Positions 6,372 through 43,771 of a stretch of DNA of 64,000 bases are shown piece by piece; position 1 is the first letter of the stretch; the number at the start of each line of letters is the position of its first letter. A program made the translations under genes and the position numbers. Below the pieces are notes generated by a model, which worked only from the letters and a program-made list of their open reading frames with translations, made no database searches and was not told the DNA's origin. The stretch comes from Escherichia coli. Its GTDB lineage: Bacteria > Pseudomonadota > Gammaproteobacteria > Enterobacterales > Enterobacteriaceae. The DNA lies in the NCBI RefSeq assembly GCF_041886205.1, contig NZ_CP169029.1; one strand, given 5' to 3'.

Positions 6372-7022
<651 letters not shown>

Positions 7023-7026
7023 AGCC

Positions 7027-7416
7027 ATGAAACGTTATTTACGCTGGATTGTGGCGGCAGAATTTCTGTTCGCCGCAGGGAATCTTCACGCCGTTGAGGT
7101 AGAAGTCCCGGGATTGTTAACTGACCATACTGTTTCATCTATTGGCCATGATTTTTACCGAGCCTTTAGTGATAAATGGGAAAGTGACTATACGGGTAAC
7201 TTAACGATTAATGAAAGGCCCAGTGCACGATGGGGAAGCTGGATCACTATAACGGTCAATCAGGACGTTATTTTCCAGACTTTTTTATTTCCGTTGAAAA
7301 GAGACTTCGAGAAAACTGTCGTCTTTGCACTGATTCAAACTGAAGAAGCACTAAATCGTCGCCAGATAAATCAGGCGTTATTAAGTACGGGCGATTTGGC
7401 GCATGATGAATTCTAA
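7027..7416 (+). CDS. csgE: Curli secretion specificity factor CsgE
   Basis: 129-aa ORF with signal peptide, immediately after csgD. Confidence 0.9.
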
Positions 7417-7883: not shown

Positions 7884-8717
7884 ATGCAGCGCTTATTTCT
7901 TTTGGTTGCCGTCATGTTACTGAGCGGATGCTTAACCGCCCCGCCTAAAGAAGCCGCCAGACCGACATTAATGCCTCGTGCTCAGAGCTACAAAGATTTG
8001 ACCCATCTGCCAGCGCCGACGGGTAAGATCTTTGTTTCGGTATACAACATTCAGGACGAAACCGGGCAATTTAAACCCTACCCGGCAAGTAACTTCTCCA
8101 CTGCTGTTCCGCAAAGCGCCACGGCAATGCTGGTCACGGCATTGAAAGATTCTCGCTGGTTTATACCGCTGGAGCGCCAGGGCTTACAAAACCTGCTTAA
8201 CGAGCGCAAGATTATTCGTGCGGCACAAGAAAACGGTACGGTTGCCATTAATAACCGAATCCCGCTGCAGTCTTTAACGGCGGCAAATATCATGGTCGAA
8301 GGTTCAATTATCGGTTATGAAAGCAACGTCAAATCGGGCGGGGTTGGGGCAAGATATTTTGGGATCGGTGCCGACACGCAATACCAGCTCGATCAGATTG
8401 CCGTGAACCTGCGCGTCGTCAATGTGAGTACCGGTGAGATCCTCTCCTCGGTGAACACCAGTAAGACGATACTTTCCTATGAAGTTCAGGCCGGGGTTTT
8501 CCGCTTTATTGACTACCAGCGCTTGCTGGAAGGGGAAGTGGGTTACACCTCGAACGAACCCGTTATGCTGTGCCTGATGTCGGCTATCGAAACAGGGGTC
8601 ATTTTCCTGATTAATGATGGTATTGACCGTGGTCTGTGGGATTTGCAGAACAAAGCAGAACGGCAGAACGACATTCTGGTGAAATACCGCCATATGTCGG
8701 TTCCACCAGAATCCTGA
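7884..8717 (+). CDS. csgG: Curli secretion channel lipoprotein CsgG
   Basis: 277-aa ORF with lipoprotein signal (LLSGC); operon position. Confidence 0.9.
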   Translation: MQRLFLLVAVMLLSGCLTAPPKEAARPTLMPRAQSYKDLTHLPAPTGKIFVSVYNIQDETGQFKPYPASNFSTAVPQSATAMLVTALKDSRWFIPLERQGLQNLLNERKIIRAAQENGTVAINNRIPLQSLTAANIMVEGSIIGYESNVKSGGVGARYFGIGADTQYQLDQIAVNLRVVNVSTGEILSSVNTSKTILSYEVQAGVFRFIDYQRLLEGEVGYTSNEPVMLCLMSAIETGVIFLINDGIDRGLWDLQNKAERQNDILVKYRHMSVPPES

Positions 8718-11916: not shown

Positions 11917-12004
11917 GGTGAGGTGTCCGAGTGGCTGAAGGAGCACGCCTGGAAAGTGTGTATACGGCAACGTATCGGGGGTTCGAATCCCCCCCTCACC
12001 GCCA
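11917..12004 (+). tRNA. serX: tRNA-Ser (GGA anticodon, long variable arm)
   Basis: 88-nt sequence GGTGAGGTGTCCGAGTGGCTGAAGGAGCACGCCTGGAAAGTG...GGTTCGAATCCCCCCCTCACCGCCA with acceptor stem, D and T arms, CCA end; marks the island boundary. Confidence 0.9.
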
Positions 12005-23270: not shown

Positions 23271-23479
23271 CAGCTTTTCCTTACAGAGGGTGAATAAAAA
23301 AGCCGGTACCCACAAATGTGGATACCGGCAGGTACAAAACAGCATGGTCAGATAAAGTGGTTTTTCCCGGGCATAAATGCTTCCCCTCTCTCATCCGCCA
23401 GAGAAGTATCAGTCCGTTGTGTGCAATTCCGTTCTGCATGATGAAGAGATTCAGCTGCCTTTTCGCAGACCATTAACCA

Positions 23480-23530
23480 CTATAAACGATCGATAGTAAC
23501 GATCAATACCTGTTTTATCGATCGTTTTAT
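23480..23530 (-). promoter_or_regulatory. flu phase-variation switch (three GATC sites; expected Dam/OxyR target)
   Basis: GATC at 23488, 23501 and 23520 in ...AACGATCGATAGTAACGATCAATACCTGTTTTATCGATCGTTTTATTC..., about 220-250 bp upstream of the flu start. Confidence 0.6.
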
Positions 23531-24554: not shown

Positions 24555-24870
24555 CGGAAAGGTGGCGGGGGATTCACAACGATAATATCTGTCTGAAATT
24601 ATTTGGAATGCAGGTATATGCAGCTAATTTGTATCGGCTCATTAGTACAGAACTAAACCTCATCTGACAGTCCGCTCTATGTCATAAGCGGTCCTTATAT
24701 ACACTAAGGTAGAATTGTCTTCTGGGGCGGGGTTGTCCAAATAAAATCCTAAAGTATCTAATTTATACGTAGTGATTCAGTATCATGTGCTACGTGTTGA
24801 ATTATAAATTTAGTTTAAATTGGTTGTTTAGATATCTGCATGATAACTATCAGACCATTGTGGAGTATTT

Positions 24871-25389
24871 ATGACGATTCTTGAAGAAATGGAAGCAGAA
24901 GCATGGCATATCCTAACAACCATCTATACGTATCAGCGGTTGATGGAAGGCCTTACTAATAGCAGTACAAGATATGAGCTTGCCAATCAGTTGGTAGCCC
25001 TCAATGCATTGTTGGAAATGTTGGTGATCCGTTTAGCGCGTCTTGCGGATAAAAGGAAAGATGTGAGATCTGTATCAATGTTTTTGAAACGCGGCTCGTA
25101 TTCTGCTTCACCAGAGGCTGTGAAATTGGCAGCTGAAAAGTTCCTTGCACTCACAGAACCAGTATTAAAGATTAGGCATGAGCAGATTGCACATATGAAG
25201 CCCGGCACACTCAGTAGCTTCGAGCCTCGAGAACTTCCAAATGAAGCTCTGAGAGCAACTGAGGCTCTAATCGATCTCATTGACATTGCCAGAGGTCACC
25301 CTCAGTCTTACACATACCGAGTTGGCTCACAGGAGCCTGCCATTAATTTGAGAGCTTCAGTAGAGACTAGCGAACTAGTTAAAATCTAA
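24871..25389 (+). CDS. Hypothetical protein, 172 aa, possible HEPN-like R-x5-H motif
   Basis: ORF in AT-rich DNA; contains KIRHEQIAHMK; no family recognised; convergent with the 459-aa gene. Confidence 0.5.
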   Translation: MTILEEMEAEAWHILTTIYTYQRLMEGLTNSSTRYELANQLVALNALLEMLVIRLARLADKRKDVRSVSMFLKRGSYSASPEAVKLAAEKFLALTEPVLKIRHEQIAHMKPGTLSSFEPRELPNEALRATEALIDLIDIARGHPQSYTYRVGSQEPAINLRASVETSELVKI

Positions 25390-25411
25390 TAATTCACTCA
25401 AGTCTATGCTA

Positions 25412-25439
25412 CTTTGCCGAGTTGCTTTACTCGGCAAAG
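25412..25439. terminator. Hairpin between convergent genes (bidirectional terminator candidate)
   Basis: Perfect 11-bp stem CTTTGCCGAGT / ACTCGGCAAAG with 6-nt loop. Confidence 0.5.
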
Positions 25440-25525
25440 TAATTAGCTCCCCGTTAATAACAGATCCGGCAGCCCCTCAACCTTTTTGCTTAAGTGAATA
25501 TATTTTCACAATATTTCCTACTGCT

Positions 25526-26905
25526 TCAGTCATAAAATTTATTTTTGCCTTTTGACGTCATGAGAAGGAAATATGAAGGGTGACTCTTTATTTCTGAAGA
25601 GTGGCTTGTTATACTAAAAACCTCTTTTAGAATCGTAAAGGCTCCTGTAGCCAACGACACTGGATTTGGTGCCCCAATAAAACCTATCAATGATGGCGCA
25701 ATGTTAAGAAAAAGTTCTTTATTACTTTTCCGCTTATAGGTCTGTATTTTTTGCTCAATATCGGTCAATCCTTCATCCCATATGCGCTCGACAAAATGCT
25801 GATTTATCAGCTGCCTCTTATATGGGTCACTTTCTGCTTCTATGTCATACGCAGCTTCACGTAGCACAGAGCGGAAGGCATTAAAACTCGATTCGTAGTC
25901 AGTTCTAATTTTGTAGAGTTCACTTGGAGTAAGCCCCTCTAGAAATGGAACGTCAATAGAGAGTTTAACCCTCTGAACTTCATTCCTTTGATCCAGTTTA
26001 CGAAGAATTTCTCCATGAAATGGGCAATATGCGCCCAGGGACGCTCTGCATGAATGCGCTTGGTTAAGATCAGTAATAAGGTTTTTATAATGAAAGAGAA
26101 CTGTACGATTTTTTGCTCCCTGCACCCACCGTTCATAACTTTTTTTTCCGCTATGCTTTCCCATGACAATTTCCATAGACATGGTACCATCATCATTATC
26201 AATGGCATTATTTATATGTTGATACATATATCCATTTGTATACGAGCTTTCGCAGCCTTTAATTTTCAACATAATTTCATTCGTTAAAACATTTCTGTTT
26301 AACAACCGAATTTTATTTGTGTTGCCCAGACGTTCTATATTCTGTACGGATAGTCTACTTTCATACAGACGGGCAATATTAGGGGGGAGATATCGAAATA
26401 GGAAATTAGTATCAGAGTTATCTTCTAAAATTCCATTAGCTCTCTCCGAATCTTTAATAGAGGATTCTCTTCGTACAAAAACGATAAACTCTCCACGGAT
26501 AAGATCAAAGTTTTCTTTAGCAAACCTGATAAACCTAGCAATTTCCTTCCTGAGATGTTCAACCTTCTCTTTGCTATCGCTTTCAATAAATTTTTCAACT
26601 ACGTTTTCTGATAGATTTACCCTGTATCGTAGGCTCAATGAATATAGAACGTCATCAAGAATGACTCTGTCCATTGAAAACAAACCACTCTTATACCTTT
26701 CAATATTACGATTCCCCGCCATGTAAACATTCAGCCGGGACTCCTGTACAGAATTTGTTTGTTCGATAATGAATGAATCTATCCTTTTATTATATTCAGC
26801 TAATTCAACTAGCAATTCGTTCAATCCGATATTTTCATATTCCTGTTCTAAAAGTCGATCAACCCAAAAAAGGCTTTCTGTGAGCGCATAGAGGTTGTTG
26901 TACAT
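25526..26905 (-). CDS. Hypothetical protein, 459 aa, no recognisable domain
   Basis: Long uninterrupted ORF in visibly AT-rich DNA, Lys/Glu/Asn-rich, no TM segments; sits between the GTPase and the type I RM operon. Confidence 0.6.
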   Translation of the reverse strand: MYNNLYALTESLFWVDRLLEQEYENIGLNELLVELAEYNKRIDSFIIEQTNSVQESRLNVYMAGNRNIERYKSGLFSMDRVILDDVLYSLSLRYRVNLSENVVEKFIESDSKEKVEHLRKEIARFIRFAKENFDLIRGEFIVFVRRESSIKDSERANGILEDNSDTNFLFRYLPPNIARLYESRLSVQNIERLGNTNKIRLLNRNVLTNEIMLKIKGCESSYTNGYMYQHINNAIDNDDGTMSMEIVMGKHSGKKSYERWVQGAKNRTVLFHYKNLITDLNQAHSCRASLGAYCPFHGEILRKLDQRNEVQRVKLSIDVPFLEGLTPSELYKIRTDYESSFNAFRSVLREAAYDIEAESDPYKRQLINQHFVERIWDEGLTDIEQKIQTYKRKSNKELFLNIAPSLIGFIGAPNPVSLATGAFTILKEVFSITSHSSEIKSHPSYFLLMTSKGKNKFYD

Positions 26906-27857
26906 ACTAGCTCCTTTTTACCAAGCTTCAGTACTGTGTTCTCAAGATTACTCAGTGGTTTTCACACAGAGTGCACTCTCATTTTACATTTAAATGTACT
27001 TCCTAGCATCCTGCTGTTAGTGCCGGATTACAGCACTTATCAACTGTATATTTAGAAAACAAACTGCGCATAATCCTAGTGAGTTGTTATGTCCGCTCCT
27101 CGCTCAAAGCAGACCATTCGCTCAGTTAACGCATCAGTGTCGTGCTAAAAGTAGACGTGGTTAACAACAATGTGAGTTAATCAACGGAGAGCAGGTCAAC
27201 TCTAACCTGTATCAAAAAAACAAATGTGTCACAAAGATGCCGCATGCCTTAATTTGAGTATAATTGAGACGGAAGTAGACGGTTTATGGCTAAATATTGT
27301 TGATATATAGCTATTTGAAGAGTTGTAGCGCAAGTGTATAGCCCAAACTAATAACGCTACCCCTTACCTTTGACGCCTCTTATCAAAGAGCTGCGATGAT
27401 GCACAGCCCGCACGAGGCAATATTCGCACAAGAATCAGGTTCAGAAATAACCTGCTCTGGCATGGTGGGGAGAGTATCACTGATCAGGCTTTCGTTAAGA
27501 TGCGGCGGGATGAGGCCGTGTTGCGTGAGTTGCAGCAGTACAAGATCGCCCGCAGAGGGTAAGCTACAGCGCGAGATCCTAGGTTTCTATCAGGGATTCG
27601 GCAAAGCGGGCGCAGTTGTCGACCAAGGCGGTGAAATCTATAGTGGCATTATAAGGGAACGAACAATAGATCGAGTAAATCGCAGTCAGGGACAAGGATT
27701 GTAGTCTATAGAGAAGTCTCCTGTAACGGTTTTCAGGAGGCTAATTCCGACGCCTGATTTTGCAGGCGCGGAGGGAGAGGATACTGCGACCATTAATCCG
27801 CCACAAAGCATTTACGTGCATAAATCACGCAGTCAGATCCGACTCTCACTGTAGTTC

Positions 27858-28094
27858 TTGAACCTGATACCACATTTAGCTAATTTAGCTAACTTATCCA
27901 GTATACCAGTGGTTGCCATGAATATGAATGAAGACGAGATTTATCGTCATATCCGGCAGGCACTTTCCAGTGCGCCGCGTAACCAGTACACCGTCGAGCT
28001 GCACCTGCAAATGATTAAATATGCCGACGAACTGGAACACATTACGGCAAAAGCCTTTTGCGAAGGCACCGGTCTGAATACCGATCTGCTGTAA
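27858..28094 (+). CDS. Small hypothetical ORF upstream of hsdM
   Basis: 78-aa ORF (possible internal start MNMNEDEIYRHIRQ...) ending 40 bp before hsdM; no family recognised. Confidence 0.25.
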   Translation: MNLIPHLANLANLSSIPVVAMNMNEDEIYRHIRQALSSAPRNQYTVELHLQMIKYADELEHITAKAFCEGTGLNTDLL

Positions 28095-28133
28095 CCGACT
28101 TACGGCACATTATCGCGCAAAACGAGATATTTA

Positions 28134-30572
28134 ATGGCTATCAAAAAAACCGAACTCTATTCTTCCCTGTGGGCAAGCTGCGACGAACTGCGTGGCGGGA
28201 TGGACGCCAGCCAGTACAAAGACTATGTACTGACCCTGCTGTTTATGAAGTACGTTTCCGATAAGTATAAAGGCGATCCTTACGGGATGATCGTGATACC
28301 CAAAGGAGCCAGCTTTGACGATATGGTTGCGCTGAAAAATGACAAAGAGATCGGCGATAAAATCAACAAAATCATCCACAAGCTGGCGGAAGAGAACGGC
28401 CTGAAGGGCGTCATCGACGAAGCCGACTTTAACGACGAAGATAAACTCGGCAAAGGCAAGGAAATGATTGACCGCCTGAGCAAGCTTGTCGGTATCTTTG
28501 AAGGGTTAGATCTCTCCAGCAACCGGGTCGAAGGCGACGATCTGCTGGGCGATGCCTATGAATATCTGATGCGTCACTTCGCAACCGAATCCGGCAAGAG
28601 TAAAGGACAGTTTTACACTCCGGCGGAGGTGTCACGTATTCTGGCAAAGGTGATTGGTATTACTCCCGATACGCCGCGAGATGCAACGGTTTATGACCCA
28701 ACCTGTGGCTCTGGTTCGCTGCTGTTGAAAGTGAATGATGAAGCCCGGCGCGGACTGTCGATTTTCGGCCAAGAGATGGATAACGCTACCAGTGCGCTGG
28801 CGCGGATGAACATGATTCTGCATAACAATGCCACCGCGAAAATCTGGCAGGGCAATACGCTGAGTGATCCGCAGTGGAAAGAGGCGAACGGCAAACTGAA
28901 AGCCTTCGATTTTGCCGTGGCGAACCCGCCTTTTTCCAATAAAAACTGGACCAACGGGCTGACGCCGAAAAAAGATCCGTTTGAACGCTTCGGCTGGGGT
29001 ATTCCGCCGGAAAAAAACGGCGATTATGCTTTTTTGTTGCATATCATTAAAAGCCTGAAAAGTACCGGCAAAGGCGCGGTGATCCTGCCCCACGGCGTAC
29101 TGTTTCGCGGTAACGCCGAAGCGAATATCCGTGAAAACCTAATCAAGCAGGGCTATATCAAAGGCGTTATTGGTTTGCCAGCCAACCTGTTTTACGGCAC
29201 CGGCATCCCGGCGTGCATCATTGTGATTGATAAAGAGCACGCCCACAGCCGCAAAGGCATTTTTATGATCGACGCCAGTCGGGGCTTTATCAAAGATGGC
29301 AACAAGAACCGCCTGCGTAGCCAAGATATTCACCGTATTGTGGACGTGTTCAACCATCAGCGAACGGTGCCAGGCTACAGCCGGATGGTGCCCTCCAGCG
29401 AGATCGCCGGGAATGATTACAACCTGAATATTCCTCGTTATATCGAGAGTGGAGAGCCGGAAGATTTGCACGATCTGACCGCGCACTTACAGGGCGGTAT
29501 TCCAGTGCGCGATGTAGATGCTTTGAAGGATTACTGGCGGGTATTCCCTGCCCTGCGTAATGTGCTGTTTGCTGACGACCACCCCGGTTACTGCCGGGCG
29601 CAAGTGGACGCGCAGCAGGTGAAACCGACCATTCTGGCTCATCAGGAGTTTAAGGATTTTGCCACCCGCAGCCTGCTACCGTTTAAGTCGTGGGTAAAAG
29701 AGGCAGGTCTGGAAGAGATCCGCAAAGGAGATAAACCCAAAGCGCTAATCCACGATATCAGCGAAATGCTATTGGCGCAGTACGCCAACAGTGAGTTGCT
29801 GAACAAATACAGCGTGTACCAGATCCTGATGGATTACTGGGCTGATGTCATGCAGGACGATGTGTATGTGATTATGCAGGATGGCTGGAAAGCCGCCGCG
29901 CAAATCCGCGAGCTTCAGCCGGTGAAAGGCAAAGATGGCAAAAACATCTGGAAAGAAACGCACGATTTCGAGTTTACCAAACGGCGCTACAAGGCCGATG
30001 TGCTGCCCCGTTCGCTGGTGGAAATTCGCTGTTTCCCGGAACTGCTGGATGCGCTGAACCGCGCGCAGGAGCGCAGTGAAGAAGCCAGTCGTCAGCTAGT
30101 GGAATTCATCGAGGAGCAGGCAGGGGAAGAGGATCTGCTGGCTGAGGTGAAAAACGATAAAGATAAGGTGACGCAAAAGCTGGTGAATGCCCGTCTGGCA
30201 CAGTTGAAGCCCCCCCCTGCCGACCCGGATGAGCTGGCAGTGCTGAACCGCTGTCTGGCGCTGATTAAGGCCGAGGCCAGTGCGAAAAAAGCGCTGAAAG
30301 CCGCACAGGAAGCGTTGGATCGAGCGGTATTTAAACATTATCCCACGCTGGATGAAGCAGCGATTAAAACGCTGGTAGTGCAGGATAAGTGGCTGGCAAC
30401 GTTGCAGGCAGGGATCAAAGCGGAGATAGAGCGTATTACCCAGCAACTGGCGTCGCGCGTAAAGGAGCTGGAAGAGCGTTATGCTGAACCGTTGCCAGCA
30501 CTTGAAGCCGCCGTTGAGGCGTTGAGCGAGAAAGTGGCCGGGCATTTGCGGGCGATGGGGCTGGAGTGGTGA
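28134..30572 (+). CDS. hsdM: Type I restriction-modification system methyltransferase subunit M with long C-terminal extension
   Basis: 812 aa; HsdM N-terminal domain (MAIKKTELYSSLWASCDELRGGMD), AdoMet motif VYDPTCGSGSLL, catalytic NPPF (FDFAVANPPFSNKNW); about 300-aa Ala/Glu/Lys-rich helical tail. Confidence 0.9.
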   Translation: MAIKKTELYSSLWASCDELRGGMDASQYKDYVLTLLFMKYVSDKYKGDPYGMIVIPKGASFDDMVALKNDKEIGDKINKIIHKLAEENGLKGVIDEADFNDEDKLGKGKEMIDRLSKLVGIFEGLDLSSNRVEGDDLLGDAYEYLMRHFATESGKSKGQFYTPAEVSRILAKVIGITPDTPRDATVYDPTCGSGSLLLKVNDEARRGLSIFGQEMDNATSALARMNMILHNNATAKIWQGNTLSDPQWKEANGKLKAFDFAVANPPFSNKNWTNGLTPKKDPFERFGWGIPPEKNGDYAFLLHIIKSLKSTGKGAVILPHGVLFRGNAEANIRENLIKQGYIKGVIGLPANLFYGTGIPACIIVIDKEHAHSRKGIFMIDASRGFIKDGNKNRLRSQDIHRIVDVFNHQRTVPGYSRMVPSSEIAGNDYNLNIPRYIESGEPEDLHDLTAHLQGGIPVRDVDALKDYWRVFPALRNVLFADDHPGYCRAQVDAQQVKPTILAHQEFKDFATRSLLPFKSWVKEAGLEEIRKGDKPKALIHDISEMLLAQYANSELLNKYSVYQILMDYWADVMQDDVYVIMQDGWKAAAQIRELQPVKGKDGKNIWKETHDFEFTKRRYKADVLPRSLVEIRCFPELLDALNRAQERSEEASRQLVEFIEEQAGEEDLLAEVKNDKDKVTQKLVNARLAQLKPPPADPDELAVLNRCLALIKAEASAKKALKAAQEALDRAVFKHYPTLDEAAIKTLVVQDKWLATLQAGIKAEIERITQQLASRVKELEERYAEPLPALEAAVEALSEKVAGHLRAMGLEW

Positions 30573-31921
30573 TGGTGGATTTAATGGTGAATGAGCAACG
30601 GTCGGGTACGGCGGGGAAAGATGTGCCTGCGGGGTATAAGCTGACTGAGGTGGGGGTGATTCCTGAGGATTGGGTAGTAATCTCTATTGATGACTGTACA
30701 ACCAAAGTTGGTAGTGGAAAAACACCAACTGGTGGAGCATCTGTTTATATTGATAGCGGACGCCCTTTTGTCCGTAGCCAAAATGTTGATTGGGGAAGAT
30801 TAGATCTCGCCGATGTCGTACATATTACAGATGAAACCCATAACACATTCTCTGGTTCTGAAATTCAGCAAGATGATGTTTTACTCAACATAACGGGAGC
30901 ATCTATCGGCCGATGCGCTAAAGCTGATTTTAGGGTTATAGGTGGTAATGTTAACCAACATGTTTGCATCATCAGAACAGAGGCAAAAAAACTCTCCCCA
31001 TCCTTACTGGTTGAATTAATCAATTCAAATTATGGACAAAACCAGATTGATAGTTATCAAGCCGGAGGAAACAGAGAAGGACTGAATTTTTCTCAAGTTA
31101 AAAATCTTAAGTTTGCTATTACACCAAACTCCTTTGAACAAACGGAAATTGTCAGAACATTAAATGATATTAATGCATTTACTCTCGCTCTGGAAAACTT
31201 AATTGCTAAAAAACAGGCCATAAAAGCCGCTGCTATGCAACAACTACTTACCGGTAAAACCCGTTTGCCACAGTTTGCGTTGCGCAAAGATGGCTCTGCT
31301 AAGGGATATAAAAAGAGCGAGTTGGGGGAGATTCCTGAAGATTGGAATTGTATTAATCTTGGTGAGCTAGGTAATTGCATTATTGGGTTAACTTACAAAC
31401 CTGAAGATACATCTGATTATGGTACATTGGTATTACGCTCATCCAACATTCAAAATAATCACTTAGCTTATGATGATAACGTCTTCGTCAGCATAGAACC
31501 ACCTGAGCGCACAATTGTGAAAGAAGGTGATATCTTGGTATGTGTAAGAAATGGCAGTCGCCAACTTATTGGCAAATGCGCATTAATTGACAAAAATGCG
31601 CAGGGCTCAGCATTCGGTGCATTTATGTCAGTATTCCGAACTGATATATATGGATTTACATTTCACCAATTCCAGTCTGATATTATTCAAAAGCAAATCG
31701 CTGAAGTTATGGGTGCCACTATCAATCAGATAACTAACAAAGATATGTTGGGCTTTAAAATCCCATTACCTGAAAATACAGAAGAACAAGCCGCCATCGC
31801 CGCCATCCTCTCCGATATGGACAAGGAAATCCAGATCCTGCAACAGCGTCTGGACAAAACCCGCCAGCTTAAGCAAGGGATGATGCAGGAACTGTTAACC
31901 GGGAAAATCCGCTTAATATAG
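30566..31921 (+). CDS. hsdS: Type I restriction-modification specificity subunit S
   Basis: 451 aa; two target-recognition domains each followed by conserved helical repeats (QAIKAAAMQQLLTGKTRLP and QAAIAAILSDMDKEIQILQQRLDKTRQLKQGMMQELLTGKIRL); start overlaps hsdM stop. Confidence 0.9.
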   Translation: MVMVDLMVNEQRSGTAGKDVPAGYKLTEVGVIPEDWVVISIDDCTTKVGSGKTPTGGASVYIDSGRPFVRSQNVDWGRLDLADVVHITDETHNTFSGSEIQQDDVLLNITGASIGRCAKADFRVIGGNVNQHVCIIRTEAKKLSPSLLVELINSNYGQNQIDSYQAGGNREGLNFSQVKNLKFAITPNSFEQTEIVRTLNDINAFTLALENLIAKKQAIKAAAMQQLLTGKTRLPQFALRKDGSAKGYKKSELGEIPEDWNCINLGELGNCIIGLTYKPEDTSDYGTLVLRSSNIQNNHLAYDDNVFVSIEPPERTIVKEGDILVCVRNGSRQLIGKCALIDKNAQGSAFGAFMSVFRTDIYGFTFHQFQSDIIQKQIAEVMGATINQITNKDMLGFKIPLPENTEEQAAIAAILSDMDKEIQILQQRLDKTRQLKQGMMQELLTGKIRLI

Positions 31922-31933
31922 AAGGGAAAGCAC

Positions 31934-32590
31934 ATGGCTTATGATTACAGCGCCAGCCTCAACCCGCAAAAAGCTCTGATCTGGCGTATCGTCCATCGGG
32001 ACAATATCCCGTGGATTCTGGATAACGGGCTGCACTGCGGCAACAGTCTGGTGCAGGCGGAAAACTGGATCAATATCGGCAACCCGGAGCTGATCGGCAA
32101 GCGTGCCGGGCATCCGGTACCTGTCGGAACGGGCGGGACACTGCATGACTATGTGCCGTTTTATTTTACCCCCTTCTCGCCAATGCTGATGAACATCCAC
32201 AGCGGGCGCGGCGGCATTAAGCAACGCCCCAATGAGGAGATCGTTATTCTGGTCAGCAACTTGCGAAACGTGGCAGCACACGACGTACCCTTCGTGTTTA
32301 CCGACAGCCATGCTTACTATAACTGGACCAACTACTACACCAGTCTGGATAGTCTGGACCAGATCGACTGGCCCATTTTGCAGGCACGGGACTTTCGCCG
32401 CGATCCAGACGATCCGGCTAAATTTGAACGCTATCAGGCAGAGGCGCTAATCTGGCAACACTGCCCGATCTCTCTGCTGGATGGGATAATTTGTTACAGC
32501 GAAGAGGTCAGGTTACAATTAGAACAATGGCTGTTTCAGCGTAATCTAACAATGTCCGTTCACACACGGGCTGGATGGTACTTCTCATGA
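31934..32590 (+). CDS. darT: DarT-like ssDNA ADP-ribosyltransferase toxin (DUF4433)
   Basis: 218 aa; motifs [30 protein letters not shown] and QAEALIW align by eye with DarT family; RBS GAAGGGA upstream; 16-bp overlap with darG. Confidence 0.85.
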
Positions 32591-33654
32591 TCACATATAC
32601 ACAAGGCAATTTACTGGACGCACCGGTGGAAGCTCTGGTGAATACGGTTAATACCGTCGGTGTCATGGGGAAAGGCATCGCGTTGATGTTTAAAGAGCGC
32701 TTCCCCGAAAATATGAAAGTCTATGCCCTCGCCTGCAAACAAAAGCAGGTGATCACCGGCAAAATGTTCATTACCGAAACCGGGGAACTGATGGGACCGC
32801 GCTGGATTGTTAATTTTCCGACCAAACAGCACTGGCGCGCTGATTCCCGCATGGAGTGGATTGAAGATGGCTTGCAGGACTTACGCCGCTTTTTGATTGA
32901 AGAGAACGTGCAGTCCATCGCCATTCCACCACTGGGCGCAGGCAACGGTGGTTTGAACTGGCCGGACGTTCGGGCGCAGATTGAATCTGCCCTTGGCGAC
33001 CTTCAGGACGTTGATATCCTGATTTACCAACCGACTGAAAAATACCAGAACGTTGCCAAAAGCACTGGCGTAAAAAAGCTCACTCCCGCCAGAGCCGCCA
33101 TCGCTGAACTGGTGCGTCGCTACTGGGTATTGGGGATGGAGTGCAGCCTACTGGAAATCCAGAAACTGGCCTGGCTGTTACAACGCGCCATTGAGCAGCA
33201 TCAACAGGACGATATCCTCAAACTGCGGTTTGAAGCTCACTATTATGGCCCCTATGCGCCCAATCTGAACCATCTGCTTAATGCGCTGGACGGCACCTAT
33301 CTTAAAGCCGAGAAACGCATCCCGGACAGCCAACCGCTGGATGTGATCTGGTTTAACGATCAGAAAAAAGAACACGTTAATGCGTATCTGAACAACGAAG
33401 CCAGAGAGTGGCTACCTGCGCTGGAGCAGGTCAGCCAGTTAATTGACGGCTTTGAATCGCCGTTTGGTCTGGAGTTGCTGGCAACCGTAGACTGGTTGCT
33501 GAGCCGTGGCGAATGTCAACCAACGCTGGATTCCGTTAAGGAAGGGCTGCACCAGTGGCCTGCGGGCGAACGCTGGGCCAGCCGTAAGTTGAGGCTGTTT
33601 GATAATAATAATCTGCAATTTGCCATTAACCGCGTAATGGAGTTCCATTGCTGA
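32575..33654 (+). CDS. darG: DarG-like macrodomain antitoxin (ADP-ribosylglycohydrolase)
   Basis: 359 aa; N-terminal macrodomain ([36 protein letters not shown]) plus C-terminal domain; translationally coupled to darT. Confidence 0.85.
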
Positions 33655-33672
33655 GGGTTTAAGGAGCGCCTT

Positions 33673-36600
33673 TTGAGTACCGTGGGCCAGCGCGAACGCG
33701 CCACACAGCAGCGTCTGATTCAGTTTTTTGTTGAAGATTTAGGTTACCGCCATCTGAGTCACCGCACCGGGTACACCGGGAACAGCAACATCGACACTAA
33801 TATACTGAGCGCGTGGCTAAAACGGCGCGGCGTTAATGATACGTTGATCACCCGGGCGTTGCGGCAACTGGATTCCGCCGCCGCTCTGGGCGAAGGCAAA
33901 AAACTCTATTACGCCAATAAAGAGGTCTATCGCCTACTGCGTTACGGCGTGAAAGACAAAGAAGGCGCAGGCGAGCAGAACCAAACCGTGTGGCTGATTG
34001 ACTGGGCCAACCCACAAGCCAATGATTTCGCCATCGCCGATGAGGTGACGGTCAAAGGCGAGTACTGCAAGCGCCCGGATCTGGTGCTGTACGTTAACGG
34101 CATTGCGCTGGGCGTGATTGAACTTAAGCGTTCGTCAGTGCACGTCAGCGAAGGCATCCGGCAGAATCTCGATAATCAAAAGAAAACCTTTATCCGCGAT
34201 TTCTTCACCACTATGCAGTTAGTGATGGCGGGCAACGATACGCAGGGCCTGCGCTACGGCACCATCGAAACCCCGGAAAAATACTATCTGGAGTGGAAAG
34301 AAGATAATCCAGGCGACTATACACATAAACTCGACTTTCATTTAAGTCGTCTGTGTAGCAAATCCAGGCTGTTGGATATCGTCCATAATTACATTGCCTT
34401 TGATGTCGGGGTGAAAAAACTCTGCCGCCATAATCAGTTCTTCGGCGTCGAGGCGGCTAAACAACATATTGCCCGTCGTGAAGGCGGTATTATCTGGCAC
34501 ACACAGGGATCGGGTAAAAGCCTGACGATGGTCTGGCTGGCGAAGTGGATCCGTGAAAATGTGCCAAACTCCCGCGTGTTGATTGTGACTGACCGCACCG
34601 AACTGGATGAACAGATCGAAAGCGTGTTTATGGGCGTGAATGAAGATATTTATCGCACCTCCAGCGGCAACGATCTTATCGCAACGCTCAATCATCCTAA
34701 CCCGTGGCTCATTTGCTCGCTGGTGCATAAATTTGGTCGTCGCAGCGAAGCTGAAGACAATGCAGCTACCGACGCCTTTATCACCGAATTACAGCACTCC
34801 CTGACGAAAACATTCCGCGCCAAAGGCGATCTGTTTGTTTTTGTGGACGAGTGCCACCGCACACAATCCGGCAAGCTGCATAACGCCATGACTGCCATTC
34901 TGCCGGACGCCCTGTTTATCGGTTTTACCGGCACACCGCTGATGAAGAAAGATAAGAAGAAGTCGGTTGAGGTGTTCGGCCCTTATATCCATACCTATAA
35001 ATTTGATGAAGCGGTGGCCGACGGTGTGGTGCTGGATCTGCGCTACGAGGCACGCGATATTGACCAGTATCTGACATCAGAGAAAAAGGTCGATGACTGG
35101 TTTGAAGCCAAGACTCGCGGTTTGTCGAATTTAGCTAGGACCCAGCTTAAGCAAAAGTGGGGATCAATGCAGAAGCTGCTCTCCAGCAAGTCGCGGCTGG
35201 AGCAGATCGTTAACGACATTTTGCTGGATATGGATACCCGTCCACGCCTGATGGACGGGCGCGGCAACGCCATGCTGGTATGCAGCAGTATCTATCAAGC
35301 CTGCAAGGTTTACGAGATGTTCAGCCAGACCGAGCTGGCAGGAAAAGTAGCGATTGTGACCAGCTATCGCCCCGATGCCGCCAGCATCAAAGGCGAAGAA
35401 ACGGGCGAAGGGTTAACGGAGAAACTCTCTAAACACGCCACCTATCGTAAAATGTTGGCTGACTATTTTGAACAAAGTGAAGAGAAGGCCGCCGCACGCA
35501 TTACCGAGTTCGAGCGGGAAGTGAAACAGCGTTTTATTGAAGAGCCGGGGCAAATGCGCCTGCTTATCGTGGTGGATAAGCTGCTGACTGGCTTTGACGC
35601 GCCGTCCGCCACCTATCTCTACATTGATAAAACCATGACCGACCATACGCTGTTTCAGGCGATTTGTCGGGTGAACCGGCTGGACGGTGAGGATAAAGAG
35701 TATGGCTATATTATCGATTATAAAGATCTGTTCCGTTCGCTGGATAAAGCGATTACCGATTACACCACGGGCGCGTTTGATGATTACGATCGGGACGATG
35801 TGGCCGGGTTGCTGAAAGACAGGCTAGAGCAGGCGCAACTGGATCTCGACAGCGCGCTGGAGATGGTTCGCAGCTTATGTGAACCCGTCAAAACCCCGCG
35901 CAGCCTGCAGGACTATCAGCACTATTTTTGCGGTGAATCAGGAGAGAATCAGACTTCGTTAAACGAAAAAGAGGCGCTGCGCCTGACATTTTACCAGTGC
36001 GTCGCCCGTCTGCTACGCGCTTATGCCAACATCGCCAATGAAATGCCGGAAGCAGGCTACACTGCCGAAGAGGTAGAGAGCATTCGCGCCGAAGTCGCTG
36101 AATTCGAAAAACTGCGCTATGAGATTAAGCTGACCAGCGGCGATCTTCTGGATATGAAGCGCTTTGAACCCGCTATGCGTCATTTACTGGATATGTATGT
36201 TCGCGCCGATGATAGCGAAGTGCTGATGGATTTTGAAGAGTTAAGTCTGATTGAACTGATTGTCGAGAAAGGCTTGGCGGCGACCGTCGCCCTGCCGGAT
36301 GATATCCGTAATAATCAGGATGCGATGGCGGAAACCATCGAAAACAACGTGCGCAAAACCATCGTGGATGAAAACCCGGTTAACCCAAAATACTATGGAC
36401 GCATGTCGCAACTGCTGGATGAACTGATTACCCTTCGCCGACAAAATGCGCTCAATTATCAGCAGTATCTGGAACGTATCCGCGATTTGTGTAAACAGGT
36501 CATCCGCCCGGAGCAAACCGCCGGAGCGTGCTACCCTGCCACCATGGATACACAAGCAAAGCGCGCCTTCTATGATAACTTCGGCCACGACGAGGTACTG

Positions 36601-36768
36601 GCGACCCGCATAGATACGACGATTCGCTATACCAAAAGGGCAGAGTGGATTGGCGATCGTTTTAAAGAACGGGAAATTGCCAACGCATTACGTGAAGAGA
36701 CCGCCAGCTATAATATTGATATTGATGAGGTGATAGCGCTTGCCCGTCAGCAGAAGGAATATCACTGA
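33673..36768 (+). CDS. hsdR: Type I restriction enzyme endonuclease/translocase subunit R
   Basis: 1031 aa; helicase motifs GSGKSLTM (Walker A) and FVFVDECHR (DEAH-like), N-terminal nuclease region; probable TTG start at 33673 preceded by AAGGAG. Confidence 0.9.
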   Translation: MSTVGQRERATQQRLIQFFVEDLGYRHLSHRTGYTGNSNIDTNILSAWLKRRGVNDTLITRALRQLDSAAALGEGKKLYYANKEVYRLLRYGVKDKEGAGEQNQTVWLIDWANPQANDFAIADEVTVKGEYCKRPDLVLYVNGIALGVIELKRSSVHVSEGIRQNLDNQKKTFIRDFFTTMQLVMAGNDTQGLRYGTIETPEKYYLEWKEDNPGDYTHKLDFHLSRLCSKSRLLDIVHNYIAFDVGVKKLCRHNQFFGVEAAKQHIARREGGIIWHTQGSGKSLTMVWLAKWIRENVPNSRVLIVTDRTELDEQIESVFMGVNEDIYRTSSGNDLIATLNHPNPWLICSLVHKFGRRSEAEDNAATDAFITELQHSLTKTFRAKGDLFVFVDECHRTQSGKLHNAMTAILPDALFIGFTGTPLMKKDKKKSVEVFGPYIHTYKFDEAVADGVVLDLRYEARDIDQYLTSEKKVDDWFEAKTRGLSNLARTQLKQKWGSMQKLLSSKSRLEQIVNDILLDMDTRPRLMDGRGNAMLVCSSIYQACKVYEMFSQTELAGKVAIVTSYRPDAASIKGEETGEGLTEKLSKHATYRKMLADYFEQSEEKAAARITEFEREVKQRFIEEPGQMRLLIVVDKLLTGFDAPSATYLYIDKTMTDHTLFQAICRVNRLDGEDKEYGYIIDYKDLFRSLDKAITDYTTGAFDDYDRDDVAGLLKDRLEQAQLDLDSALEMVRSLCEPVKTPRSLQDYQHYFCGESGENQTSLNEKEALRLTFYQCVARLLRAYANIANEMPEAGYTAEEVESIRAEVAEFEKLRYEIKLTSGDLLDMKRFEPAMRHLLDMYVRADDSEVLMDFEELSLIELIVEKGLAATVALPDDIRNNQDAMAETIENNVRKTIVDENPVNPKYYGRMSQLLDELITLRRQNALNYQQYLERIRDLCKQVIRPEQTAGACYPATMDTQAKRAFYDNFGHDEVLATRIDTTIRYTKRAEWIGDRFKEREIANALREETASYNIDIDEVIALARQQKEYH

Positions 36769-37484
36769 TGCCAATCATGCAAATAGGCTCGTTACACTTG
36801 CTGGTCAACCGTAAGGCGATTAAGAATCTGCATATCAGCGTGCTGCCGCCTGATGGCAAAGTCCGCGTTTCAGCGCCGGAACATATGACGGAGACGGCGA
36901 TTCGTATGGCGGTTGCTTCACGCTTTCGCTGGATCAGAAAACAGCAGCAGGATTTCGCCAGACAGCCTCGTCAATCAGAGAGGGAAATGGTCAGCGGAGA
37001 GTGCCACTATCTTTGGGGCCGAAGATATCGCCTACTTGTGATTGAGCGTCACGGGCGTCACGAAGTAAAAGTTGCGGGAAATAATAAGCTCCAGCTTTAT
37101 GTTCAACCGGGAACCCGTGATGAAAATAAGGCATTGGCGTTAAGTGAATTTTATCGACATGAACTAAAACAGCAGGTGGCTAAGCTTCTACCTGAATGGC
37201 AGGACCGAATCGGTGTTCCCCTAACATTCTGGGGCATCAAAAAGATGAAAACCTTTTGGGGCACCTGTAACACTACAACAAAACGAATCTGGCTCAATCT
37301 GGAGCTAATTAAGAAGCCGCCGGAGTGTCTGGAGTATATTCTGGTGCATGAACTGGTTCATCTTCTGGAACGTCACCATAATGCTCGCTTCCGGTTGCAT
37401 ATGGATCGGTTTATTCCTGACTGGCGTGAGCGTCGGGATTTGTTAAATAATATGCCGTTAGCGTTTGAGGCATGGGAGTATTGA
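36768..37484 (+). CDS. M48/DUF45-family zinc metallohydrolase (YgjP/WLM-like)
   Basis: 238 aa; HExxH motif in ILVHELVHLLERHHNARF; start overlaps hsdR stop, indicating co-transcription. Confidence 0.7.
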   Translation: MPIMQIGSLHLLVNRKAIKNLHISVLPPDGKVRVSAPEHMTETAIRMAVASRFRWIRKQQQDFARQPRQSEREMVSGECHYLWGRRYRLLVIERHGRHEVKVAGNNKLQLYVQPGTRDENKALALSEFYRHELKQQVAKLLPEWQDRIGVPLTFWGIKKMKTFWGTCNTTTKRIWLNLELIKKPPECLEYILVHELVHLLERHHNARFRLHMDRFIPDWRERRDLLNNMPLAFEAWEY

Positions 37485-40094: not shown

Positions 40095-41666
40095 TTACTG
40101 AGAGCTCAGATCAACTTTCCAGGGCAACAGATCGCGTACCCGGTTTGCCGGCCAGTCCTGGATATGTTCAATGACGTAACGCAGCCACTTTTCTGGCTCC
40201 ACATTGTTCAGACGGCATGTGCCGATCAGCGAGTACAACACCGCCGCATGTTCACCACCGCTGTCGGAACCCGCGAACATCCAGTTTTTCCGGCCTACGG
40301 CCACTCCCCGTAAGGCGTTCTCTGCGATGTTGTTGTCGATTTCCACCCAGCCATTACTGCAGTACACGTTCAGTGCATCCCACTGTTTCAGCAGGTATGC
40401 GAACGCTTTTGCCGTATCTGAGTGACGCGACAGTGTTTTCATCTGTTGCTGTATCCAGTCATACAGTGACTGCATCAGTGGCGCGGCTCTGGCTTTTCTT
40501 GCCGCCAGACGCTGTTCTGCTGAACAGCCCCGGACCTCTGCCTCGATGGCATACAGTTCACCGATACGCTGCAGGGCTTCCGTGGTGATGTAGGTGGACG
40601 CTCTTGCATGCACATCGTGGATTTTTCTCCGGGCATGAGCCATACACGCGGCTTCCGTTATTCTGCCGGATTCGTATAACGCCCGGTAACCACCGTAAGC
40701 ATCGGCCTGAAGCACACCGCTGTAACCGGCCAGGTGATTTTGTGGATGGATACCTTTCCGGTCCGGACTGTACGCGAACCAGACCGCCGGGGGCATCTGT
40801 GAACCGGCGTTACGGTCATCACGGACGTAGACCCACAGCCGGGCTGTCCGGGTTTTACCGCTGCCCGGCTCCTGGACCGGGACGGGGATATCATCAGCAT
40901 GGACTTTACCGGGCATCAGCACATACTGGCGCAGGACGTCATACAGCGGCTCCAGCAGTTCAGCAACAGCACCTGTCCAGCGCCCCAGTGTGGCACGGCT
41001 CAGCTCCACTCCCTGACGACGGTATATTTCTGACTGGCGGTATAACGGCAGATGGTCTGCATATTTCCCGGTGACAACATGGGCCAGAAGCCCCGCTCCG
41101 GCATAACTGCGTGCAATGGGTTTTGAAGGTACTGGTGCCTGCACGATATGGTCGCACCGGCAACAGGCCTGTTTCGGACGTTGTGTTTCGATAACCTTAA
41201 AGGCGCTGCTGATAAGCTCCAGTTGCTCTGACACATCACATCCCAGAGAACTGAGTTCACCACCACAGGCAGGACAGCATTCCTCTTCCGGCCGGATAAC
41301 CCGGGTTTCACGGGGAAGTGAGGCCGGTAACGGTTTACGGGCTGAAGACTGGCGCAGGGCGGATGGCAGTACCGGGTCATATTGCTCACCCAGCGTTTCC
41401 GCCATTTCTTCCTGAAGTGCGCTGATTCGCTCCTGTGCTTCCTGTATCTGCCGTTCGGTTTTTGCACGAAGTTTTTCTGAGCTTTTACCGAACTGCATAC
41501 GTTGCAGTTTCGCAACCAGCGCCTTCAGCCGGTTGATTTCGGAAGCATAAGCCGCCACCCGCTGTGAGAGCAGGCGGTTGTATTCAGCCATCTGGCGGAT
41601 GGTGTCCTGTTGCGTCTGCAACAGTGCCCGCAGGCGGGCGTTCTCATGAGCAAGTGAGGTGTCCAT
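40095..41666 (-). CDS. IS66-family transposase (TnpC/orf3)
   Basis: 523 aa with N-terminal coiled-coil/leucine zipper, Cys-rich zinc-binding segment and DDE region. Confidence 0.9.
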
Positions 41667-41685: not shown

Positions 41686-42033
41686 TTATATGCGGATTCC
41701 AGCGCGTTCCGTTCGTTTCGGGTGCTTCCAGTTGATACCTTCAAGAAGCATGGATAACTGAGCCGGAGTAAGGTGCACCTTGCCGTCACGGGTGACTGGC
41801 CAGACGAAGCGGCCCCGCTCCAGGCGTTTGGTGAAGAGGCACAGTCCGTCACTGTCAGCCCACAACACTTTTATCTGGTCACCCCGGCGTCCGCGGAAGA
41901 TGAACAGGTGTCCGGAGAACGGGTCATCCTTCAGGACGTTCTGAACTTTTGATGCCAGGCCGTTAAAGCCATTTCGCATATCGGTGATACCTGCAACCAG
42001 CCAGATACGCGAACCTGCAGGGAGAGATATCAT
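41686..42033 (-). CDS. IS66 Orf2 (TnpB-like accessory protein)
   Basis: 115 aa MISLPAGSRIWLVAGITDMRNGFNGLASKVQNVLKDDPFSGHLFIFRGRRGD... Confidence 0.9.
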   Translation of the reverse strand: MISLPAGSRIWLVAGITDMRNGFNGLASKVQNVLKDDPFSGHLFIFRGRRGDQIKVLWADSDGLCLFTKRLERGRFVWPVTRDGKVHLTPAQLSMLLEGINWKHPKRTERAGIRI

Positions 42034-42710
42034 CAGTGGCTGCTCCCTTTTATTTCGCGGATAAGTGTCTGTAATAACGCCGGCGTCAGTTTACCTTTAA
42101 GCCTGAGAGTTCCGGCCGGCAGAACCAGCTCACAACACAGACTGTCGGACGGTGTATTTATCTGCTCTGGTTCCTGTGCGGGGGCCGGGATTTTATTATC
42201 CGGCTCCGGCGTTAACGTCACGGGAAGCAGTGCCGGCATATTTTTTCCGGAAGGCAGCAGGCCACCTTTCCGGTATTGATGGCGCCAGTTGAAGAGCAGG
42301 TTATCGTTGATTCCGTTTTCCCGGGCGATCTGCGCCACACAGGCTCCGGGCTGCAGTGACTGCTCCACTAAGGCGATTTTAAACTCATAAGGGAAGTTGG
42401 GCCGCCGGGGACGTTTTTTTACCACGGGGGCTTCGGATATAACGGTGCTTTCAGGACGTACGACTGGTACCGTGGAAAATTGTCCGTAAAGGCAGGCATC
42501 AAGTTCCTGCTCCGACATGCCTGCGGGCAAAGGCCACGAAAGGCCAGCTCTCCGAAAGCGCACGAACATACTACAAACTGTTGATTTTGGTACACCCAGG
42601 CGACGCCCGGCCACAACCCGGGGTAAATGTTCTTCAAAGTGAAGACGTAAAGCTTCAGTGATCCAGGTCCGGTGTTTCATACGATAGTGTCCATTAAAAA
42701 TGATGGACAT
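42033..42710 (-). CDS. IS66 Orf1 (HTH accessory protein)
   Basis: 225-aa ORF with helix-turn-helix region; first gene of the IS66 element. Confidence 0.8.
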   Translation of the reverse strand: MSIIFNGHYRMKHRTWITEALRLHFEEHLPRVVAGRRLGVPKSTVCSMFVRFRRAGLSWPLPAGMSEQELDACLYGQFSTVPVVRPESTVISEAPVVKKRPRRPNFPYEFKIALVEQSLQPGACVAQIARENGINDNLLFNWRHQYRKGGLLPSGKNMPALLPVTLTPEPDNKIPAPAQEPEQINTPSDSLCCELVLPAGTLRLKGKLTPALLQTLIREIKGSSH

Positions 42711-42759
42711 TATTTTTGTAGAGCCGGAGGAAACAGACCAGACGGTTTAAATGAGCCGG

Positions 42760-43629
42760 TTACTTAGCTACTAATGCCACCGCTCTTGCACCGTGGATAA
42801 ATAATGTCCTGAGATAAGTGTCACCACGTTTGCTTATCCCCAGCAGACGTACTTTCCCTCCGGAGCCAGTTTGTTTTGGAACCAGACCAACATATGCGGC
42901 GAACTCTCGCCCCGATTTAAACGCTGATGCTTCCCCCATGGTGGCCACCGCTGCCGTCGCAATAAGTGGTCCAACGCCAGGAATATCCAGCAACCGCTTA
43001 CAGGTTTCATTCTGCCTCGCCACGCTGGTAAGCTGTTTTTCAATATCCTCTATCAGTGAGTCCAGCTCATTCAGTCGGTTGTACTGGTTTTCCAGAACCA
43101 TAATGAGATACGGTGGCAGTCTCTCTTTCATCCGTTCCAGTGCTTCGGGGAACTCCCGCTCCATCGCTGCCCGGCCTTTGTGGATGGTTTCACCAAACTC
43201 CAGTAACGTCCCGTGCAGGGCATTAATTTGTGCGGTCCGGAACTTCACCAGTTGCATGCGGGTACGGTGCAGAACCAGTACCGACTGCTGTTCTTCTGTT
43301 TTTACGGCGATTTCTTTACCCGGCTGCTGAACCGCCATCCAGATAGCCCGGGCATCCATCACATCATTCTTATTGCCCATGACGAATGCCTTAACGAAGC
43401 GGGCCTGCAACAACCGGACTTTATGACCAAGTTTTGTCAGTTCCCGTGCCCAGTGCTGAGAACCTCCACAGGCCTCCATACCAATCAGGCATGGCTCACG
43501 GTTGCCGAAGAACATCAGAAAATCCTGTCTACGCAACTGTTTATCAACCACTTCACCTGTGTGCTCATTGATGAAGTGAATCTGAATGACATGTTTTGCG
43601 ATATCAACGCCAACCGGTGTATATTTCAT
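42760..43629 (-). pseudogene. IS110-family transposase, 5' part (disrupted by IS66)
   Basis: 289-aa ORF with DEDD-type N-terminus (MKYTPVGVDIAKHVIQIHF...) and DIPGVGPLIATAAVATMGE motif; reading frame terminates inside the IS66 junction. Confidence 0.8.
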
Positions 43630-43771
43630 TTGTGGAGTCTCCAGTCTGAGGGAGCTTTATGCATCCCGTATTGGGCACTATGATGCCGGAAATCTGCGAG
43701 GCTCCACACCTGCCAGTTTCACCCTTTTAACCATCATACTGCTCCGTGTTTAATTGTGTGGGATGCGTTCA

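Follow-up and report, generated by a model that had tools for sequence, protein, structure and literature searches.

A deletion allele of rptR and a decayed minus-strand mobile-element module upstream of an intact hsdM operon in Escherichia coli

RESULTS

The RRDM island and its surroundings

The window analysed here is a 64,000-nucleotide stretch of Escherichia coli DNA (contig NZ_CP169029.1). It contains a copy of the RptR-RMS-DarTG2-M48 (RRDM) defence island, a seven-gene island whose repressor in EPEC E2348/69 is RptR, the RMS-proximal transcriptional regulator (Zhang et al., Nucleic Acids Res 2025, PMC12255303). The seven-ORF order rptR-hsdM-hsdS-darT-darG-hsdR-M48 is present: the six genes downstream of rptR (operon 28134..37484, plus strand) are all full length and rptR is truncated (Table 1). 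The DarTG2 genes sit between hsdS and hsdR, and the M48 metallopeptidase gene overlaps the hsdR stop. In strain JCH8249, the source of one of the loci used for comparison (L003), rptR is intact and hsdM is annotated as frameshifted, which indicates that different carriers have inactivated different parts of the island.

The long ORFs that flank the interval upstream of hsdM (26905 and 28134) stand 1,228 bp apart, and not 950 bp as given in the preliminary description of this DNA. About 23 complete E. coli genomes contain the stretch 26900-28200 at 100% identity, and about 250 records have it, which rules out an assembly artefact. From about position 27086 onward, the sequence is collinear with L003, with a second comparison locus (L004) and with EPEC E2348/69, and the whole block 27086-28200 accompanies the island, EPEC included. 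The AT-rich part of this block (27086..27379), which always travels with the island, contains no ORF of at least 60 aa. The segment 27060-27420 was considered as a remnant of something known, but a distant blastn search matched only the roughly 250 island-bearing E. coli genomes and the idea was dropped.

Table 1. Features of the interval upstream of hsdM and of the downstream operon (positions in the window)
Feature	Position	Strand	Remarks
AT-rich non-coding block	27086..27379	.	Between the variable cargo slot (24691-27086) and the pseudogene
Pseudogene remnant, 153-156-aa enterobacterial family (no Pfam domain)	27410..27710	-	tblastn
-1 frameshift	27433	-	
-11 indel	~27550	-	
Stop TAG	27566-27564	-	
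Stop TAG	27581-27579	-	
+1 frameshift	27652	-	
Lost start	~27707	-	ATG changed to ATAG
Vestige of P4-type immunity leader, two 5' hairpins (c4-a1b1/isrK kind)	27708..27789	-	Rfam
Single AAACCGTTACAGG copy	27720..27732	-	Junction of 180-bp deletion
-35 box TTGAAC of the island (RRDM) promoter	27858..27863	+	Identical to the EPEC promoter
RptR operator, two tandem 9-bp repeats TTTAGCTAA	27875..27892	+	TAGCTA palindrome in each
Functional -10 box AGCTAATTT	27878-27886	+	Overlapped by the operator repeats
Degenerate third in-register site TATCCA	27895..27900	+	TATCTA here in the L003 and L004 alignments
rptR allele without helix alpha-4	27924..28094	+	56 codons plus stop; likely pseudogene
Deletion junction in rptR	28069..28079	+	In-frame 69-bp loss at GGTCTGAA direct repeat; alignments with L003, L004 and EPEC
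hsdM	28134-30572	+	806/812 identical to EPEC HsdM
hsdS	30572-31921	+	Specificity domains differ from EPEC HsdS
darT	31934-32590	+	215/218 identical to EPEC DarT
darG	32587-33654	+	355/355 identical to EPEC DarG
hsdR	33673-36768	+	1025/1031 identical to EPEC HsdR
M48 peptidase	36768-37484	+	238/238 identical to EPEC M48

The variable slot is of low GC content and lies between a YeeP-like GTPase gene and the conserved island block. Its two ORFs in the window, 24871-25389 (+, 172 aa) and 25526-26905 (-, 459 aa), gave no significant Pfam match and no PHROGs or PADLOC match; the slot holds a different 314-aa ORF in L003 and a different 162-aa ORF in L004. Because of this neighbourhood, we regard the slot ORFs as candidate uncharacterised defence or accessory cargo. 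Farther upstream, Rfam matches at gathering level comprise an IS102/IsrC RNA (23289-23525, minus strand), located between adhesin (cah/Ag43-type) and GTPase genes, as well as ES056 sRNA and tRNA-Ser(GGA), at 6225-6316 (+) and 11917-12004 (+). The tRNA marks the edge of a CP4-type island with cbtA/yeeU-type genes.

Collinearity of the window with O157 strain 644-PT8 is confined to about 20.4-37.7 kb; the features that this strain carries beyond 37739 (Zorya, haemagglutinin) were not ascribed to the window, since collinearity ends there. To the right of 37739, the window contains an IS cluster (IS66, 40095-41666; IS110, 42760-43629; IS3-type ORFs, 42033-44670 and 47253-48119) and, beyond it, an MFS transporter gene and inositol-catabolism genes (iolB/iolC-like, 54054-57691). 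None of the complete RefSeq E. coli genomes covers more than 67% of 22000-46000, so that the window strain is a mosaic outside the complete RefSeq collection.

The small ORF upstream of hsdM is a copy of rptR

A 78-aa ORF just upstream of hsdM had been noted as a possible small regulator. The ORF is present: it runs from a TTG at 27858 to 28094 and ends 39 nt ahead of the hsdM ATG at 28134. The assignment was right as to family: the ORF holds a copy of rptR, which encodes a proven repressor and opens the RRDM island. Indeed, its product matches Pfam HTH_73 (PF24718) with E = 9e-19 and 67.5 bits (cut-off 27), the match extending over ORF residues 24-75 and only over profile positions 1-52 of 71. 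It also matches the crystal structure of RptR (PDB 9R2Z, chain A; E = 4e-31, residues 1-54). Compared to EPEC RptR, 54 of 56 residues are identical and residues 50-72 are missing; in the RefSeq/PGAP annotation, 27924-28088 is an incomplete "HTH-like domain-containing protein" pseudogene. It is in the boundaries of the ORF, and in the loss of the DNA-recognition helix (see below), that the earlier proposal falls short.

The intact 79-aa alleles found in L003 and L004 (loci 93% identical), which match HTH_73 over positions 1-70 of 71 (E = 1.7e-28), begin MNEDEIY at the position of ATG 27924, and a database search returned 778 homologues, nearly all of them exactly 79 aa long. ATG 27924 is the true rptR start. 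The 22 codons upstream of it (27858-27923) overlie the promoter, the operator and the 5'UTR and are not coding, and the 78-aa ORF should not be called.

Homologues that are 73-80% identical occur across Vibrio, Aeromonas, Shewanella, Methylomonas, Nitrosomonas and an alphaproteobacterial bin. They head Type I R-M operons in Vibrio and on a contig from a marine metagenome, the same first-gene position as that occupied by rptR in the window, whose stop lies 39 nt before hsdM; only a fragment of hsdM (N6_Mtase) lies downstream of the Nitrosomonas homologue. In the contexts inspected, the Type I R-M operons headed by rptR homologues differ in gene order and family.

The promoter and operators are readily recognized. 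RptR is normally a 79-aa four-helix homodimer, and a crystal structure of the intact protein is available at 1.3 A. Its alpha-4 helices enter one major groove at TAGCTA palindromes; as shown in EPEC, these palindromes are part of 9-bp direct repeats overlapping the -10 box, and RptR binding represses the operon (PMC12255303). The window likewise has two TAGCTA palindromes at 9-bp spacing over the -10 box of its rptR promoter. The -35 box, whose requirement was shown in the EPEC promoter by scrambling (PMC12255303), coincides here with the first codons of the 78-aa ORF. The number of operator repeats varies: EPEC O127:H6 has three, and the window and essentially all other sampled carriers have two, as read from the spans of the matches (231 bp versus 240 bp, with a 9-bp gap relative to EPEC). 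Two repeats suffice for repression, in EMSA and reporter assays alike, and TATCTA, which L003 and L004 carry at the degenerate third site, is an allowed operator variant (PMC12255303). Judged from the sequence, the promoter and both operator repeats are intact in the window. A consensus promoter/terminator scan was set aside: its output was not above shuffled expectation and it missed the experimentally defined promoter.

A decayed P4-type module lies on the minus strand ahead of rptR

The GC-richer patch upstream of rptR had been taken for a frameshifted gene remnant. A remnant it is, albeit on the other strand: the homology detected by tblastn is on the minus strand and not on the plus strand. 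The region matches WP_000201175 (156 aa) with E = 1e-15 and an 84-aa ORF of L003, i.e. of a 93%-identical locus, with E = 7e-36, the matches being split over three frames with in-frame stops. A distant blastn search with 27340-27860 retrieved 248 island-bearing genomes and about 860 genomes with an 80%-identical segment, which is annotated on the opposite strand as "hypothetical protein" or "ash family protein". The corresponding protein family comprises 608 proteins of 153-157 aa, from Escherichia, Salmonella, Klebsiella, Enterobacter, Citrobacter, Dickeya, Pectobacterium and Brenneria. It has no match in Pfam, PHROGs or PADLOC, and a tblastn search of 50,697 phage records with the 156-aa protein found only one unannotated 1.5-kb record.

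We mapped the lesions against the intact gene of a further locus, L002 (Table 1). An intact ORF of about 153-156 codons following the C4/"Ash" region is absent from the window: the start is lost, the frame contains two TAG stops and four indels, and the homology ends after about codon 103, near 27410, the C-terminal third being missing.

Rfam reports two matches adjacent to the pseudogene, at 27708-27782 on the minus strand. The c4-a1b1 match scores 34.1 bits (E = 1.8e-6; gathering score 46.7) and the isrK match 34.7 bits (E = 2e-5; gathering score 50), so that neither reaches its gathering score. What supports a relationship is the L002 copy: it exceeds the threshold, and its DNA is 91.9% identical to the window over 27716-27789. 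The whole series is found in L002 at scores above or close to threshold, with c4-a1b1, isrK (68 bits) and the C4 antisense RNA (71.8 bits). In phage P4, the c4-a1b1, isrK and C4 matches follow one another in the same order over the PLE leader and the CI RNA. Rfam matches no C4/CI antisense RNA, either here or elsewhere in the window. Two copies of the 13-mer AAACCGTTACAGG are found in L002 (starts 6512 and 6332), 180 bp apart, bracketing the isrK terminator and C4; in the window, L003, L004 and EPEC, there is a single copy and the intervening 180 bp are missing. The MAFFT alignment of the leader with L002 misplaced the 5' part, and the junction was set by sequence reading and by the location of the repeat.

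A deletion of 180 bp between the two repeats has removed the isrK terminator and the C4 RNA gene, and 27410-27789 (minus strand) is the decayed 5' end of a mobile-element module made up of an a1b1/isrK leader, a C4/CI RNA and then the 153-156-aa ORF. In intact contexts, the module consists of C4/"Ash", the 153-aa ORF, HTH_35 and Integrase_1, and adjoins variable defence or toxin cargo, which fits its position beside the RM-DarTG island.

The comparison also touches on the annotation of the C4 region itself. The "ash family protein" CDS (PF10554) of L002 (6288-6446, minus strand) coincides with the Rfam C4 match at 6362-6450, the "cI protein" CDS of the old P4 record (L011, 8168-8584) coincides with C4 at 8420-8507, and the 52-aa Ash ORF aligns to the translated P4 CI RNA region. 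As these CDSs coincide with the C4/CI RNA gene, part of the Ash family may be a translated RNA gene rather than a protein.

The Rfam E-values (2e-6 to 2e-5) are significant and would be compatible with 27708-27789 (minus strand) being a working RNA still, either an IsrK-like sRNA or a target or decoy for the C4/CI-type antisense RNAs of resident P4-like satellites, through which the island might be coupled to the activity of satellites or phages. Sequence reading further reveals a promoter-like TTGTGG-17-TATCCT at the position equivalent to TTGCCG-17-TATCTT in L002, hairpin 1 (a1b1) is invariant in the window, EPEC, L003, L004 and L002, and the fold z-score is -2.75. However, neither score reaches its gathering threshold, the C4 RNA and the terminator hairpin have been lost by deletion, the second hairpin has a pair-breaking G-to-A change in the window, and everything downstream on the minus strand is decayed. 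Moreover, upstream fragments of 159 bp and 228 bp had equal promoter activity in the published EPEC reporter assay (PMC12255303); as the 228-bp fragment spans the hairpins, this argues that the relic does not influence the island promoter. We thus consider a working RNA improbable: the minus-strand module is most likely a mobile-element relic without function now.

The window allele of rptR lacks helix alpha-4

The residues removed by the in-frame deletion in rptR are 50-72 or, equivalently, 53-75, owing to the GLN repeat. The full 79-aa four-helix domain with the recognition helix alpha-4 is absent from this allele. In intact RptR, alpha-4 carries the DNA contacts T57-K61 and the dimer contacts L65, R68, L69 and A72 (PMC12255303). 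Of the C-terminal dimer interface (L65, R68, L69, A72 and L74), the first four residues are deleted in the window, where only the terminal GLNTDLL is left. Since the helix that provides the DNA and dimer contacts is gone, the 56-aa product should be unable to dimerise or bind DNA and is almost certainly inactive; this loss of function rests on the structure-function data available for intact RptR.

A few features could be taken to mean that the truncated product, be it the 56-aa form or the 78-aa form started at TTG 27858, is functional, as an altered regulator, a dominant-negative protein or a decoy for a signal that removes RptR: the reading frame is kept across the deletion, helices alpha-1 to alpha-3 (the N-terminal 49 residues) are 96% conserved, and the allele persists in 35 genomes. 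Yet every DNA-contact residue and most dimer-interface residues are lost from a protein in which E58 and K61 are invariant in 87 homologues, the L74R substitution by itself made RptR unrecoverable, and S60G weakened both binding and repression (PMC12255303). The 35 genomes share at least 99% identity among themselves, which fits recent clonal spread rather than selection. As for the TTG-started form, its extension overlaps the -35 box, the -10 box and the operators, and is found in no homologue (79 aa). A functional truncated RptR is very unlikely on these grounds, and we retain an inactive product as the reading of this allele.

Among the 249 E. coli records of rptR, 214 have the full-length gene and 35 (about 14%) have the deletion. 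The deletion carriers match 34 records that are at least 99% identical to the window, and include several O157:H7, bovine and ETEC strains. A search in distant mode identified a second rptR-like place in many O157:H7 carriers and only one such place in several of the deletion carriers; no second rptR copy was found in the window itself.

Plus-strand frames of the GC-richer patch

The GC content of 27380-27710 is 0.505; the flank (26906-27379) has 0.403 and the entire window 0.497. The patch described as GC-richer is so relative to its AT-rich neighbour, and not relative to the genome. The protein-like plus-strand frames reported there do exist. The translation quoted at the time, ...DQAFVKMRRDEAVLRELQQYKIARRG, is present in one frame (the peptide ends ...YKIARRG), and a second frame is open as a 102-aa ORF (27396-27704). 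That the patch is the frameshifted remnant of a plus-strand gene, oriented like hsdM, is nonetheless effectively refuted: two plus frames are open over about 60-100 codons, but the corresponding peptides have no Pfam/NCBIfam match above the curated cut-off (best E 0.12), the strong homology to the 608-member family is on the minus strand, the sense frame of the intact homologues (minus strand in the window) has no internal stops whereas the three antisense frames have 2-9 stops each, and substitutions concentrate at the third codon positions of the sense frame (61 versus 38 and 32).

On these alignments, the plus-strand peptides are antisense read-through of the pseudogene, and a coding sequence that once ran on the other strand accounts for the higher GC content and for the protein-like plus frames. 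A decayed gene may look protein-like when its antisense strand is translated, as it does at 27380-27710.

DISCUSSION

Both features that had attracted attention in this interval are real and are explained by known biology. We hold with high confidence that the interval consists of two unrelated adjacent pieces, the rptR deletion allele and a decayed minus-strand mobile-element module; homologues were found, and the region is likewise conserved ahead of related hsdM genes. The discovery value is small: the 2025 publication on this locus in EPEC already describes rptR and its mechanism, and the GC patch is a mobile-element leftover. As regards annotation, rptR should be given as a deletion allele starting at 27924, in place of the 78-aa ORF. 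What gives the locus a modest interest is the natural occurrence of an rptR-null allele ahead of an operon that is intact and potentially toxic, and the possible action in trans of an orphan paralogue.

Without alpha-4, the repression encoded in cis would be lost, and the intact hsdMS-darTG-hsdR-M48 operon would be constitutively derepressed unless something acts in trans. In the EPEC study, neither hsdMSR nor darTG2 could be cloned directly behind the unrepressed promoter on pBR322, the constructs being toxic (PMC12255303). In view of this toxicity, the presence of an intact operon behind a dead repressor in 35 genomes is mildly surprising. Single-copy dosage or other regulation may account for the tolerance.

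Repression of the island in trans could be provided, in O157:H7, by an orphan RptR paralogue. In O157:H7 strain Z1812, a gene located between thiM and rcnR (6925-7164 in locus L022), which no R-M genes adjoin, encodes an intact 79-aa protein (WP_000141034.1) that is identical to EPEC RptR at 54 of 79 positions. The alpha-4 segment of this paralogue, TEFSKMRNLT.RLKAAGL, departs from that of RptR at residue 67 only, and its promoter contains TAGCTA at -45 and TATCTA at -27. WP_000141034.1 would plausibly repress the island in trans. However, some of the deletion carriers are without a second rptR-like place, so that trans-complementation is not the general answer. Divergent copies similar to the orphan paralogue are found in about 470 further E. 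coli genomes.

We therefore propose only tentatively that the window represents a natural repressor-null island, which in these lineages might either be constitutively on or be held in trans, the candidate being the orphan paralogue between thiM and rcnR; we regard this as possible rather than probable. If true, it would mean that there is cross-talk among the RptR paralogues that control defence islands. The alpha-4-deleted strains amount to a natural experiment, in which a Type I RM/DarTG2 island is maintained without its cis repressor, and such strains could serve to test trans regulation by orphan RptR paralogues.

Comparison with known systems

The minus-strand vestige is related to the immunity region of P4 (PLE leader with seqA, and CI RNA; RF03163, RF01394, RF01695), whose a1b1/isrK-type hairpins are found in the window too, and this region is also related to the c4 region of P1/P7 and to IsrK of Gifsy-1. 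In L002 and P4, the order and orientation of the hairpins are the same and C4 follows them, whereas the window is devoid of C4 and of the isrK terminator. P4 itself has no counterpart of the 153-156-aa ORF family: the 156-aa protein matched none of the P4 left-operon ORFs (misannotated "cI" CDS, epsilon, ORF151, ORF106 and ORF88).

RptR invites comparison with the C proteins of Type II systems. Each is a small DNA-binding protein that regulates its own expression from the first gene of an R-M operon, and both act on short repeated palindromes overlapping the promoter. C proteins, however, have a lambda-cI-like HTH_3 domain, bind operators of 15-20 bp across two major grooves and are usually encoded ahead of the endonuclease gene. 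RptR, by contrast, has a fold of its own and precedes Type I operons, and the published model has it recognizing a 6-bp palindrome within one groove (PMC12255303). The Pfam domain detected in the product of the window allele is HTH_73, and not the HTH_3 of C proteins.

The closest known system is the RRDM island of EPEC E2348/69. Its RptR (WP_000343040.1, 9R2Z, PF24718) is the product of the same gene at the same locus, the upstream relic is common to both, and the downstream operon is 99-100% identical to that of the window, the specificity domains of HsdS excepted. The window differs from EPEC in that its rptR allele is without residues 50-72 (alpha-4) and in that its promoter has two operator repeats instead of three.
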